A stretch of DNA of 64,000 nt from Escherichia coli (GTDB lineage Bacteria > Pseudomonadota > Gammaproteobacteria > Enterobacterales > Enterobacteriaceae). Below the pieces are notes generated by a model that was given only the letters and a program-made list of their open reading frames with translations, made no database searches and had not been told where the DNA came from. The position numbers and the translations under genes were made by a program. Numbering within the stretch: position 1 is the stretch's first letter; each line of letters begins with the position of its first letter. The stretch lies in NCBI RefSeq assembly GCF_003334305.1, contig NZ_QOWS01000004.1. The stretch is one strand, 5' to 3'. Below are positions 5,585 through 13,512 of this stretch, piece by piece.

Positions 5585-8341
5585 ATGACCAACTACAGCC
5601 TGCGCGCACGCATGATGATTCTGATCCTGGCACCGACCGTCCTTATTGGTTTATTGCTGAGTATCTTTTTCGTCGTGCATCGCTATAACGACTTGCAGCG
5701 TCAACTGGAAGATGCCGGTGCCAGCATTATTGAGCCGCTTGCAGTTTCTACTGAATATGGCATGAGCCTGCAAAATCGCGAATCTATCGGTCAGTTAATA
5801 AGCGTACTGCATCGTCGCCATTCCGATATTGTTCGCGCGATTTCGGTTTATGATGAAAATAACCGACTCTTTGTCACCTCCAATTTTCATCTTGATCCCT
5901 CATCAATGCAGCTCGGCAGCAACGTGCCGTTTCCTCGCCAGCTCACTGTCACTCGTGACGGCGATATTATGATCCTCCGCACGCCGATTATTTCTGAGAG
6001 TTACTCCCCCGACGAATCGCCCAGTAGCGATGCCAAAAATAGTCAAAATATGTTGGGATATATTGCGCTTGAGCTGGATCTTAAATCGGTTCGCTTGCAG
6101 CAATATAAAGAGATCTTTATTTCCAGCGTGATGATGCTGTTTTGTATCGGTATTGCGCTTATTTTTGGCTGGCGCTTAATGCGCGATGTAACCGGTCCGA
6201 TTCGCAACATGGTGAATACCGTCGACCGCATCCGTCGCGGGCAACTCGACAGCCGGGTGGAAGGATTTATGCTCGGCGAGCTGGATATGCTGAAAAACGG
6301 TATCAACTCGATGGCAATGTCGCTGGCTGCTTATCACGAAGAGATGCAGCACAATATCGACCAGGCGACGTCCGATCTGCGTGAAACGCTGGAGCAGATG
6401 GAAATTCAGAACGTTGAGTTAGATCTGGCGAAAAAGCGCGCCCAGGAAGCGGCGCGTATTAAATCCGAGTTTCTGGCAAATATGTCACACGAGCTGCGTA
6501 CACCACTGAATGGTGTTATTGGCTTTACCCGCCTGACGCTGAAAACAGAATTAACACCAACGCAGCGCGATCACCTGAATACGATTGAACGTTCGGCAAA
6601 TAATTTGCTGGCAATTATTAATGATGTTCTCGACTTCTCGAAACTGGAAGCAGGTAAGCTGATTCTGGAAAGTATTCCATTCCCACTACGCAGCACGCTG
6701 GATGAAGTCGTTACTCTGCTGGCACATTCTTCTCACGATAAAGGGTTGGAACTGACGCTCAATATTAAAAGCGACGTGCCTGATAACGTGATCGGCGACC
6801 CACTGCGATTACAGCAAATCATCACTAACCTGGTGGGGAATGCAATTAAATTCACCGAGAATGGCAACATTGATATTCTGGTAGAAAAACGTGCGCTGAG
6901 TAATACCAAAGTGCAGATTGAAGTGCAGATTCGGGATACCGGCATTGGTATTCCTGAACGCGATCAATCGCGCTTATTCCAGGCCTTCCGACAGGCTGAT
7001 GCCAGTATTTCCCGCCGTCATGGTGGCACCGGTCTGGGGCTGGTGATTACACAAAAACTGGTTAATGAAATGGGCGGCGATATTTCGTTCCATAGCCAGC
7101 CGAATCGCGGTTCAACTTTCTGGTTCCACATTAATCTCGATCTGAACCCGAACATTATTATCGAAGGGCCATCCACCCAGTGCCTCGCCGGTAAGCGCCT
7201 GGCCTATGTCGAACCAAACTCCGCAGCAGCGCAATGCACGCTGGATATTTTAAGTGAAACGCCGCTGGAAGTGGTTTATAGCCCAACGTTCTCCGCGCTG
7301 CCTCCCGCGCATTACGACATGATGTTGTTAGGCATCGCGGTGACCTTCCGCGAGCCGCTAACAATGCAACATGAGCGATTAGCGAAAGCGGTATCGATGA
7401 CCGATTTCCTGATGCTGGCACTTCCTTGCCATGCACAAGTCAATGCAGAAAAACTCAAGCAAGATGGTATCGGCGCGTGTCTGCTGAAACCATTAACACC
7501 TACGCGCCTGTTGCCTGCCCTGACGGAATTTTGTCATCACAAACAAAACACGCTTTTGCCTGTAACCGATGAAAGCAAGCTGGCAATGACAGTCATGGCA
7601 GTTGATGACAACCCCGCTAACCTGAAACTTATCGGCGCATTGCTGGAAGATATGGTGCAACATGTGGAACTTTGCGATAGCGGGCATCAGGCGGTTGAAC
7701 GGGCGAAACAGATGCCGTTCGATTTGATCTTAATGGATATTCAAATGCCTGACATGGATGGCATTCGGGCCTGCGAGCTCATCCACCAGCTCCCCCATCA
7801 GCAACAAACGCCGGTTATCGCGGTAACGGCGCATGCAATGGCCGGGCAAAAAGAGAAGCTGCTTGGCGCAGGGATGAGCGATTATCTGGCGAAACCGATT
7901 GAAGAAGAGCGATTGCATAATTTGTTGTTGCGCTACAAGCCTGGCAGCGGTATTTCCTCTCGCGTCGTGACGCCCGAAGTCAACGAAATTGTGGTGAACC
8001 CGAATGCGACCCTCGACTGGCAACTGGCACTACGCCAGGCAGCAGGAAAAACCGATTTAGCGCGCGATATGCTGCAAATGTTACTCGATTTCCTGCCTGA
8101 AGTTCGCAACAAAGTTGAGGAACAGCTGGTTGGAGAAAACCCGGAAGGCCTGGTTGATTTGATTCATAAACTGCATGGCAGTTGCGGCTATAGCGGTGTG
8201 CCGCGTATGAAGAATCTCTGCCAACTGATCGAACAACAGCTACGTAGCGGTACTAAAGAAGAAGATTTGGAGCCGGAGCTGCTGGAACTGTTGGACGAGA
8301 TGGATAATGTAGCGCGCGAAGCCAGCAAAATTCTCGGGTAA
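5585..8341 (+). CDS. barA: Hybrid sensor histidine kinase BarA (tripartite HK-REC-HPt)
   Basis: 918-aa [34 protein letters not shown]... with an H-box ([17 protein letters not shown]), a receiver domain ([14 protein letters not shown]) and a C-terminal HPt region. Confidence 0.97.
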
Positions 8342-8535: not shown

Positions 8536-8567
8536 AGCCGGCTCCAGATAGAGCCGGTTTTGGTTTT
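8536..8567 (+). terminator. Rho-independent terminator (plus-strand orientation, downstream of barA)
   Basis: GC stem gccggctc / gagccggt with a 6-nt loop, followed by TTTTGGTTTT on the plus strand. Confidence 0.6.
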
Positions 8568-11275: not shown

Positions 11276-12628
11276 TTATTGCCCCGCGACAGGTTTCAGC
11301 TCGATACGCTTGATATCGCCCACCAGCACCAGGTAGCTCAGTACCGCGATTAAGGCATGAACACCAACATAAATCAGCGCCCCATTAAAGGAGCCAGTCG
11401 TGCCAACGATATAACCAATTGCGATTGGCGTGACGATGCCAGAAATGTTACCGAACATGTTGAACAGGCCACCGGAAAGACCGCTGATCTCTTTTGGCGC
11501 GGTATCTGCCATTACTGCCCAACCCAGCGCCCCGATGCCCTTACCGAAGAAGGCCAGCGCCATAAAGCCGATGATCATCCACTCAACGTTGACGTAGTTG
11601 CAGAACACCATCACCATCGACAGCAACATGCCCATTACGATCGGTGTTTTACGCGCAATGTTCAGCGATCCCGTGCGGCGCATCAGCCAGTCGGAAATAA
11701 TCCCACCCAGCACACCGCCGATAAAACCGCAAACCGCCGGAACGGAAGCCACAAAGCCCGCTTTCAGAATCGACATCCCACGCGCCTGCACCAGATAAAC
11801 CGGAAACCAGGTAATGAAAAAGTAAGTCAGGGCGTTGATACAGTACTGACCGATATAAACGCCGATCATCATCCGTGACCCGAGCAGTTGTTTGATCTGC
11901 CCCCACTTCACGCTGAACGGCACTTTAACTTTGGTGTTTTGCTGATCCATATTGATCAGCGCGCCACCCGCGGCGATGTACTCCAGCTCTTTCTGATTTA
12001 CCCCCGGATGTTGATTTGGCTCGTGGATGACTTTCAACCAGATAAAGCTGATGACAATCCCCAGACCGCCCATAAAGAAGAAGACGTGTGACCAGCCCAC
12101 TTCATGCGTCAGCCAGCCCATAATCGGCGCGAAGATCACCGTTGCGAAGTATTGAGCGGAGTTAAAAATCGACACCGCCGTTCCCCTTTCCTGCGCCGGA
12201 AACCAGGCCGCAACAATGCGACTGTTGCCGGGGAAAGATGGCGCTTCAGCAAGCCCGACCAGGAAGCGCAGAGTAAACAGGGCAACGATAATGCCGAATC
12301 CACTAAAGATATCGACGAAGCCTTGCAGCAAGGTAAACATCGACCAGATAAAGATCGACCAGAAGTAGACGCGTTTTGAACCAAAACGATCCAGCAACCA
12401 ACCACCAGGGATCTGCCCGATAACATAAGCCCATGAGAAGGCAGAGAACACATAGCCCATTCCCACGGGATCAAGGCCGATATCTTTGGCCATTTCCGAA
12501 CCGGCAATAGAAAGCGTAGCGCGGTCGCCGTAGTTGAAGGATGTGACGATAAACAACATCACCACTATCCAGTAACGAGCATTCGTGCGTTTTTCCACAC
12601 TGCTCGCAGCCTGACTTAAAGAACTCAT
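11276..12628 (-). CDS. gudP: MFS transporter for D-glucarate/galactarate
   Basis: 450-aa hydrophobic [43 protein letters not shown]..., with multiple predicted TM helices; first gene of the gudPXD operon. Confidence 0.93.
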
Positions 12629-13062
12629 TGTTGCACTCCTGAAAATTCGCGTTAGCCACGCTCACTCTGGACTGCGACATAGCCAGGAAATCAGAGGTGA
12701 CGTAGGGTGTTTTTTGCCGTTTTTATAGGTCGTTCGCCGAATACGGCGCGTGTTTATATCTGGCAATAGCAGTATAAAAAGCGCGCCATAGCGGCTCACC
12801 GTGCAACAACACAACATTAATGCGTTCAATGAGGCCCGATTTTGGCATTAGCCCTGGACGGTGGAATCCACTTCACGGAAATGAAAACAAGAACAAGAAA
12901 GGAAGGGTTAAAACGAAGAAATAAAGAAGAGTATGAAATGGATCGCTTGACTCCAGGCAAACGCCAGTAAAAATCCGCGCTATGAAGCAGTTTTTACTGG
13001 CATTTGCCTGAAAATATTCGATTCAGCACCGCTAAAACGACATTTACCGCTCGCTGAACATA

Positions 13063-13512
13063 TCAGGACAACAGCGTGCCCCACTGTTCGACCCACGGAT
13101 TTGATTCCGTTTCCGGTTCCGGGTTCTCACTGGCGTCAATCAACAGCATTTCGCCAACCCGCTGAGCGCTCTGTTCCTGCAACAAGGCATCGAACTGTTT
13201 GCCGCCATTGCAGAAATTTACATAACTGCTGTCACCGAGCGCAATCACGCCATAACGCAGATTCGGCTGGAAGCCCAGACTATCTTTGATTCCCTGAAAG
13301 AGCGGCACAATGCTATCAGGAAGGTCGCCCTGCCCGGTCGTGGACGTAACCACCAGAACATACTTATCCTGATAGGGCAGCCAGTCGCTTAATTCAGGAT
13401 CTTCAAATACCGTTGCTTTGTGGCCCTGTGCGGTCAGAATTGCTTCTGCTTCTTCCGCCACTAACAGCGAATTTCCGTACATGGTGCCGACAAAAATACC
13501 AATTTCCGCCAT
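13063..13512 (-). CDS. yqcA: Short-chain flavodoxin YqcA
   Basis: 149-aa [44 protein letters not shown]... with a flavodoxin-like FMN-binding N-terminus. Confidence 0.9.

Follow-up and report, generated by a model that had tools for sequence, protein, structure and literature searches.

The purine-rich run between gudP and yqcA of Escherichia coli is probably the Escherichia version of a linker whose length and helical phase are conserved and whose sequence is not. The linker would belong to a multi-site region upstream of the CdaR-dependent gudPXD promoter. The original prediction, which was made from this sequence alone, had offered a regulatory element of the gud operon as one reading of the run. 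That idea was right in kind and wrong in detail: the run is a spacer that lies between conserved boxes, and it is not itself a conserved binding site. Overall, the gudP–yqcA spacer is an ordinary piece of promoter architecture, and what the comparison of genomes adds is modest, namely a putative phase-locked distal module, which was previously undescribed, and a candidate CdaR operator.

A purine-rich tract in the gudP–yqcA spacer

We analyzed a 64-kb stretch of the E. coli genome (the window), and all coordinates are positions in this window (Table 1). The spacer between gudP and yqcA is 434 bp long (12629-13062) and corresponds to 2922101-2922534 of MG1655. It was found in 5426 of 5426 complete E. 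coli genomes. No feature is annotated within it in MG1655 or in the 25 RefSeq genomes that we sampled from the 5426, and a literature search found gudP mentioned together with yqcA nowhere. The spacer had been described as free of open reading frames, which holds for long frames but not for short ones, as several mechanical ORFs of 20-55 amino acids are listed in it.

The reported run of nearly uninterrupted A and G, about 65 nt long, is real. The 65-nt span at 12877-12941 is 85% purine, and the tract is the top-scoring purine segment on the + strand of the window (score 27). In 200 simulations of 64 kb each from a first-order Markov model, the score of a purine segment never exceeded 24, so the run is beyond chance. 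The tract carries small tandem duplications (ACAAGA and AAGG each occur twice). When it is placed on the map of conserved elements, it consists of the variable linker stretch plus the purine-rich edges of the boxes on either side (Box 1 and Box 2).

Table 1. Features in and around the gudP–yqcA spacer, in window coordinates.
Feature	Position	Strand	Description
gudP	11276-12628	-	
gudP ribosome-binding region	12629-12645	-	TTCAGGAGTGCAACA then ATG; nearly invariant
Conserved stem-loop in the gudP 5' leader	~12658-12703	-	Folds in nearly all species
Predicted gudP -10 hexamer	12771-12776	-	TATACT; invariant across species; 29/30 nt from the core box
Core activator box	12795-12819	-	Adjoins the -35; gudP sense TAATGTTGTGTTGTTGCACGGTGAG; nearly invariant in 68 species
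Mid box	12840-12857		TTTTGGCATTAGCCCTGG; conserved, GCAWWWGC core; candidate CdaR operator
Box 1	12861-12887		Palindrome GTGGAATCCAC then TTCACGGAAATGAAAA; from the 68-species profile; includes the ATG at 12881
Polypurine tract	12877-12931	+	55 nt, 87% A/G; the gudP-sense strand is pyrimidine-rich
29-codon frame	12881-12970	+	ATG at 12881, TAA at 12968-12970; judged spurious
Linker between Box 1 and Box 2	12888-12927		Length conserved, sequence free; filled by the purine tract in Escherichia
Box 2 (distal)	12928-12952		AGAGTATGAAATGGATCGCTTGACT in E. coli, GGAGTGTGAAACAGGTCGCTTGAC in most other genera; pattern TGTGA-N6-TCNCTTGAC
yqcA terminator hairpin	12952-13012	-	A-run, stem, T-run; symmetrical on both strands
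yqcA	13063-13512	-	

Conserved modules of the gudP control region

We compared the yqcA neighborhood across 80 enterobacterial species. In 68 of them gudP lies next to yqcA as in E. coli, and we built a profile of conserved blocks from these 68 syntenic spacers. (The species are related by descent, so counts of species, here and below, overstate the number of independent events.)

The part of the spacer nearest to gudP has a recognizable promoter and leader. The invariant TATACT would place the start of gudP transcription near 12764. The core box is TGCACGGTGAG with an upstream TGTG, and the garP and gudP promoters have a common core layout (TTGCAC, then 18-19 nt, then TATACT). Within the leader, the arms of the stem-loop show compensatory changes (CATTCTGA/TCAGAATG, CTCTGA/TCAGAG, CATCCTG/CAGGATG, and CATTCGG/CCGGATG). 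RNAalifold reported no structure for the raw leader alignment because the arms were misaligned; folding the sequences one by one showed the hairpin.

At the other end of the spacer, the yqcA terminator has a folding energy of -40.1 kcal/mol in E. coli, and its arms also show compensatory changes (CCAG/CTGG, CCTG/CAGG, and CCCG/CGGG). The E. coli version is atypical: the U-run is paired inside a stem of 26 bp, and there is no U-tract beyond the full stem, whereas other genera have a canonical GC stem and then a U-run. What looked like a third conserved box (TGAAAA) turned out to be the left arm of this hairpin.

The distal module, Box 2, is conserved in a way that is typical of a DNA site, with high information in the columns of both half-sites and a variable center of 5-6 nt. 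In Escherichia the left half is degraded (TATGA instead of TGTGA), so E. coli itself may have a distal site with little or no function. Two other readings of Box 2 were considered and rejected. As a 5-codon mini-ORF ([AG]TG AAA NNN NTC NCT TGA), it would vary at first codon positions and across the central N6, as DNA sites do, and AGGAG lies only 1 nt before the start codon. As a + strand promoter (TTGACT-16-AAAAAT, 12947-12974), it would depend on a -10 element that is not conserved outside E. coli. With that promoter, a CRP site of class-II type would sit at -41.5.

Enterobacter, the Citrobacter freundii group, Lelliottia, and Buttiauxella all contain gudP but have neither Box 2 nor the linker. 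In these bacteria, Box 1 is retained and a GC-rich, REP-like palindrome abuts it. Because many lineages have gudP without Box 2, the distal module is dispensable there and is an accessory to the promoter. Conversely, none of the gud-less loci that we examined has Box 2 downstream of yqcA: in E. albertii and at loci L065 and L070 there is a plain terminator, and locus L069 retains a remnant of Box 1. At the loci examined, then, the boxes accompany gud rather than yqcA.

The linker is conserved in length and free in sequence

All 30 species with canonical boxes have a linker of 40 or 41 nt. In Leclercia and in isolate RIT714 it is 30 nt, or exactly one helical turn less. Its sequence shows nothing like this constancy: identity between genera is 90% for the 16-nt core of Box 1 and 75% for Box 2 but 35% for the linker. 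The suggestion that the purine run is itself a protein-binding site does not survive this comparison.

The constancy extends to the promoter. In 35 of 36 species, 145-147 bp separate Box 2 from the core box; the exception is Leclercia, with 135 bp. At the same loci, the distance from the -10 hexamer to the ATG varies from 128 to 173 and the distance from yqcA to Box 2 varies from 34 to 183, so indels are otherwise frequent in the spacer.

We also scanned metagenome contigs with the pattern TTCACGGAA-N{35,65}-TGTGA-N6-TCNCTTGA, which allows 31 different gap lengths. Among the 92 loci with a match, 81 (40 distinct sequences) have the gudP core motif 65/66 bp from Box 1, as expected. Only four gap lengths occur at these 81 loci: 51 (49 loci), 52 (28), 41 (3), and 42 (1), which are the equivalents of linkers of 40/41 and 30/31 nt. 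The other 11 loci, which is about the number expected by chance, lack the core motif, and their gaps are scattered over 39, 44, 47, 51, 52, 56, 61, and 65. The short class of linker arose at least twice, once in Leclercia-type sequences and once at locus L121, which has a canonical Box 1.

Within Escherichia, all six of the representatives that we compared keep the 40-nt linker and TCGCTTGAC exactly. Their linkers contain no indels, whereas many have accumulated in the neighboring stretch from the terminator to yqcA. Substitutions are not similarly suppressed, as their density in the tract (0.118) is no lower than in the flanks.

Lengths that fall about one helical turn apart, with none in between, are by all appearances the signature of a face-of-helix constraint on DNA. 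Linkers of 40, 41, and 30 nt differ modulo 3, so coding does not fit, and quantized lengths do not suggest an RNA gene either. A structured RNA had been put forward for the tract; an Rfam search of the tract with a permissive E-value returned only sub-threshold eukaryotic and viral noise, and the structured RNA of this spacer lies elsewhere, in the gudP leader.

The linker does have a compositional bias. Its purine fraction on the + strand is 0.56-0.88 across all 36 species and is strongest in Escherichia; that strand has at least as much G as C, and more A than T, in 36 of 36. A pure length constraint leaves this bias unexplained.

A linker that is free in sequence, with a spacing conserved modulo one helical turn, is what is expected of a phase-dependent multi-site promoter. 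The classic case is the looping between O2 and I1 at araBAD, in which the distal site acts only if a whole number of helical turns separates it from the proximal ones. The sequence in between is unconstrained, and changes of ±10-11 bp are tolerated but half-turn changes are not. The restriction of gudP linkers to 40/41 or 30/31 nt follows the same rule. There are also differences. The rule at gudP comes from natural variation rather than from insertion mutants, and the distance between Box 1 and Box 2 (about 60-70 bp) is shorter than in classic loops. Also, the gudP regulator is an activator of the PucR family and not AraC, and it is only a candidate for the protein at the boxes.

We propose that the upstream regulatory region of gudP occupies about 190 bp between the yqcA terminator hairpin and the -10 hexamer and would contain four conserved modules: the core box at about -39, the mid box at about -85, Box 1 at about -105 to -120, and Box 2 at about -175. 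Selection would act on the distance and the rotational phase of Box 2 relative to the other modules and not on the sequence of the linker, so the linker would drift. In Escherichia the result would be an A/G run of low complexity that contains small internal duplications. The reason for such selection may be that proteins at Box 2 and at the proximal boxes need a fixed helical register. If so, the bound proteins would act jointly on RNA polymerase, by bending or wrapping the DNA or by forming a short loop. The likeliest binder would be an oligomeric CdaR complex, possibly together with a CRP-like factor.

A more ambitious version of this proposal is tentative. In that version, Box 1, the phase-locked linker, and Box 2 would form an undescribed distal operator array that is specific to gudP. 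It would be bound by oligomeric CdaR or by a second regulator, with wrapping or looping over about 175 bp. Selection would also favor the purine/pyrimidine asymmetry of the two linker strands, for instance because Rho could use it to insulate gudP from yqcA read-through. If this version is true, the array would provide the first operator map for CdaR, a regulator that is widely used in glucarate biosensors.

Candidate proteins for the conserved boxes

To compare the gudP modules with other CdaR-dependent promoters, we considered the garP-garD spacer and the region upstream of cdaR. Only the mid box is common to all of these promoters. A weight matrix for the mid box matches the garP-garD spacer at 11.2 bits and the upstream region of cdaR at 7.2 bits (the 99.9th percentile of the background is -2.6). 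This points to the shared GCAWWWGC-type element as a candidate CdaR operator. We found no counterparts of Box 1, Box 2, or the tract at garP-garD or cdaR.

As of 2020, the binding sites of CdaR and its oligomeric state were still undetermined (PMC7652997). GabR of Corynebacterium glutamicum, which is a PucR-family relative of CdaR, is an octamer and binds cooperatively to two repeats upstream of its target (PMC7652997), which makes a multi-site CdaR complex plausible. An oligomer of this family on two sites would fit the phased boxes upstream of gudP. Unlike the repeats bound by GabR, though, Box 1 and Box 2 do not resemble sequences at other CdaR promoters; only the mid box does.

A second candidate is CRP, or a protein like it. 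Glucarate catabolism is a plausible target of CRP, and Box 2 resembles CRP sites (TGTGA-N6-TCACA) in its layout, TGTGA-N6-TCNCT, and in its pattern of conservation: both of the critical C positions in the right half are conserved, and the central 6 nt vary. We scored Box 2 with an approximate CRP matrix derived from classical sites. The score is only 3.2 bits for the E. coli sequence and 3.2-9 bits for those of other genera, as compared to 7-17 bits for the training sites. Unlike standard CRP sites, Box 2 also carries an extra conserved TTGAC and, at -175, it lies far beyond the usual positions of CRP at class I or class III promoters. In genomic SELEX, the garP-garD spacer was bound by CRP, and the list of targets includes garP<>garD but not gudP, although absence from such a list is weak evidence (PMC3105977).

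We also inspected the boxes by eye for the consensus sites of KdgR, Cra, FadR/GntR-type, and GalR/LacI-type regulators and of IHF, FNR, CreB, and OmpR/TorR. These gave only partial or half-site matches, and none of them fitted the pattern of conservation across species.

Other explanations of the tract

The tract might instead work as RNA, as a Rho-utilization (rut-like) region on the minus strand. Rho would end read-through transcription from yqcA before it reaches the gudP promoter and would thereby insulate the operon, which is tightly regulated. We consider this rather unlikely as the explanation of the tract, but a Rho-dependent back-up terminator or insulator would be a live rival, and it could also be an additional function of the linker. 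On the minus strand, 12872-12949 contains 20 C versus 7 G, a ratio that ranks among the top 0.1% of 78-nt windows, and it has 16 YC dimers. As in rut regions that follow weak terminators, the gudP-sense RNA right after the yqcA hairpin would have more C than G and would be pyrimidine-rich and unstructured. The unusual E. coli terminator, with its U-run paired in the stem, would also suit a back-up, and a Rho site would account for the strand asymmetry that is seen in 36 of 36 species. But the RNA is rich in U (50%) and not in C (26%), and the conserved boxes and the 10-bp quantization of the linker length would have no explanation. Furthermore, the association of a weak terminator with a strong tract rests on one lineage. 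The Term-seq supplement that we searched has no entry for gudP or yqcA.

About equally improbable, in our view, is that the linker and Box 2 are a decaying remnant without function in E. coli, so that the purine run is neutral filler generated by slippage. The loss of Box 2 from many lineages and its degraded left half in Escherichia are what decay would look like, as are the low CRP score in E. coli (3.2 bits with our approximate matrix) and the absence of gudP from the SELEX list that includes garP<>garD. The small tandem duplications are suggestive of slippage, and the substitution density within Escherichia is not below that of the flanks. Against decay, the 40-nt linker and TCGCTTGAC are exact in six of six Escherichia representatives, and the linker has no indels even though they abound between the terminator and yqcA.

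A small RNA from the + strand, purine-rich with (ARN)n motifs of the Hfq-binding type and ending at the bidirectional hairpin, is very improbable. The symmetry of the hairpin gives the + strand a T-run as well, and the tract does include runs such as AAG AAC AAG AAA. However, we found no promoter-like site upstream of the tract on that strand, and the lone match (12947-12974) is downstream of it. The sequence of the tract is not conserved (35% between genera) and has no match in Rfam, and the gudP-yqcA spacer does not appear as a node in the RIL-seq and CLASH supplements that we searched.

Still less credible is an action of the polypurine·polypyrimidine run through DNA structure, as a stiff tract or as supercoiling-responsive H-DNA (triplex): besides the purine bias in 36 of 36 species there are two mirror repeats, GAAGAAATAAAGAAG (12915-12929, 15 nt, with a central T) and AAGAACAAGAA (12889-12899, 11 nt, with a central C), but these are short and interrupted, no long uninterrupted homopurine mirror repeat is present, the A-tracts do not recur in phase (about 10.5 bp), and the linker of most genera is only 56-77% purine and includes hairpin-forming GC palindromes. 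Intrinsic curvature from phased A-tracts was rejected as well, as the spacings are irregular.

The 29-codon frame appears to be an accident of sequence

The original prediction also raised the possibility of a small basic peptide encoded within the tract. The frame exists as it was described: it runs for 29 codons from ATG to TAA and translates to MKTRTRKEGLKRRNKEEYEMDRLTPGKRQ, and a TTG at 12842 would lengthen it to 42 amino acids. It was also correct that there is no well-spaced Shine-Dalgarno sequence, as the sole Shine-Dalgarno-like bases upstream of the ATG are GGA at 12877-12879, just 1 nt away. We found no promoter-like site on the + strand upstream of the frame.

Comparisons across species argue strongly against a peptide. 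The ATG is conserved, but only because it is inside a conserved DNA box (GGAAATGAAAA, in Box 1). In 30 other species, the frame that starts at the same ATG varies from 3 to 82 codons and stops at unrelated positions. The distance from Box 1 to Box 2 is 52 or 53 nt depending on the species, and the reading frame between the boxes differs accordingly. In one Escherichia lineage, codon 11 is a stop. Across the six Escherichia representatives, which is a small sample, the frame has 13 variable sites, distributed as 3, 4, and 6 among the first, second, and third codon positions, so there is no third-position bias; eight of the 13 changes are non-synonymous, and one is a nonsense change. Finally, the last six codons of the frame lie inside the left arm of the stem of the yqcA terminator. 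Analysis of conservation and of synonymous substitutions was the check that had been proposed for the peptide. Conservation does not respect the reading frame, which refutes the peptide by the standard that the original prediction set.

Whether the frame matches an annotated small protein had been left open. The 42-amino-acid form that starts at TTG is called a "hypothetical protein," with no function, in some E. coli and Shigella records by automatic annotation, but it is absent from the annotation of MG1655. Neither the coordinates of the frame nor its gene names have an entry in the one published ribosome-profiling supplement that we searched. The frame does have something in common with genes for small proteins and leader peptides, which is that it is a short intergenic frame, starting with ATG, upstream of a regulated operon. 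Unlike them, it is on the strand opposite to the operon and lacks a usable Shine-Dalgarno sequence, a promoter, and a conserved frame or length, and it has a nonsense allele in one lineage. Despite the presence of the frame, the conserved ATG, and the scattered database records, we think there is only the slightest chance that the 29-codon frame or the 42-amino-acid form is translated into a small, highly basic protein. Sequence comparison indicates that the frame is an accident and not a gene. Neither form should be called as a gene, and the sporadic "hypothetical protein" annotations are spurious.

Implications for gudP regulation

Glucarate use matters for the expansion of enterobacteria in the inflamed gut, and PgudP with CdaR is a popular biosensor for glucarate. 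The control region of gudP appears to be larger and more structured than is annotated, with four modules in register over about 190 bp and a hairpin in the leader. The PgudP/CdaR biosensor uses the whole spacer as a single undissected piece of about 500 bp (PMC4551912). The map of modules and the candidate GCAWWWGC operator would give testable targets for trimming or tuning PgudP.

Hairpins at the two ends of the gudP–yqcA spacer

The 5' leader of gudP contains a conserved stem-loop that carries no annotation. Between genera, its arms change in step: the covarying pairs are CATTCTGA/TCAGAATG, CTCTGA/TCAGAG, CATCCTG/CAGGATG, and CATTCGG/CCGGATG. An outer helix (ACGT/ACGT) lengthens the stem-loop. 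At the other end of the spacer, the yqcA terminator hairpin of E. coli is atypical: its A-run is paired with its U-run, and the full stem is not followed by a U-tract. In contrast, the yqcA terminators of Citrobacter, Klebsiella, and Raoultella are canonical, with a GC stem and then U5-6.

Coordinates of the features, in the window unless a comparison locus (L-number) is named
Feature	Position	Strand	Basis
gudP 5' leader stem-loop, conserved	12658-12703	minus	arm covariation across genera
E. coli yqcA terminator hairpin, atypical	12952-13012		26 bp, -40 kcal/mol
GCAWWWGC-containing element	12840-12857; L082 7071-7096; L083 2391-2418		sequence comparison of the gudP, garP-garD, and cdaR regions
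EC6563 deletion junction	L176 3990-4010 (window 8560 joined to 12906)		comparison with the window
Polypyrimidine run, the window's strongest	61670-61716		score 31, higher than the purine tract

A candidate CdaR operator

An element containing GCAWWWGC, TTTWDGGCATWWGCMC, is common to the gudP upstream region, the garP-garD spacer, and the cdaR upstream region. As of 2020, the operator of CdaR, the regulator of the gudP promoter, was given as undetermined (PMC7652997). Based on this shared sequence, the element is a candidate for it.

Similar sequences elsewhere in the window

The strongest polypyrimidine run lies in the spacer immediately upstream of a 346-aa ORF that starts at 61745. It resembles the gudP purine tract (the A/G run between Box 1 and Box 2, the conserved modules upstream of gudP) in that both are pyrimidine-rich when read in the sense direction of the gene that follows. 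Separately, strong CRP-like 22-mers occur at 59433 (ATTCGTGACCCAGGTCACACCT), 15578, 24597, and 24340; these score 15-18 bits with an approximate weight matrix that was built from classical CRP sites.

Natural replacements and deletions downstream of yqcA

A GC-rich REP-like palindrome, GCCGGGTGGCGGCTTCGCCTGACCCGGCCTAC, adjoins Box 1 in Enterobacter and the C. freundii group (loci L010, L011, L016, L017, and L025-L041), where it takes the place of the long hairpin as well as of Box 2 and the linker. E. coli EC6563 has naturally lost about 4.3 kb, including gudPXD and the adjacent downstream gene. The right junction of this deletion falls within the purine tract, at GGTT, a microhomology shared with the terminator near window position 8556-8560. 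In another locus (L069), gud is deleted and barA is the next gene after yqcA, and a remnant of Box 1, CCGTGGACCAGCCCCCATCC, is kept at about 6480-6530. This remnant is the footprint of a lost gud promoter.
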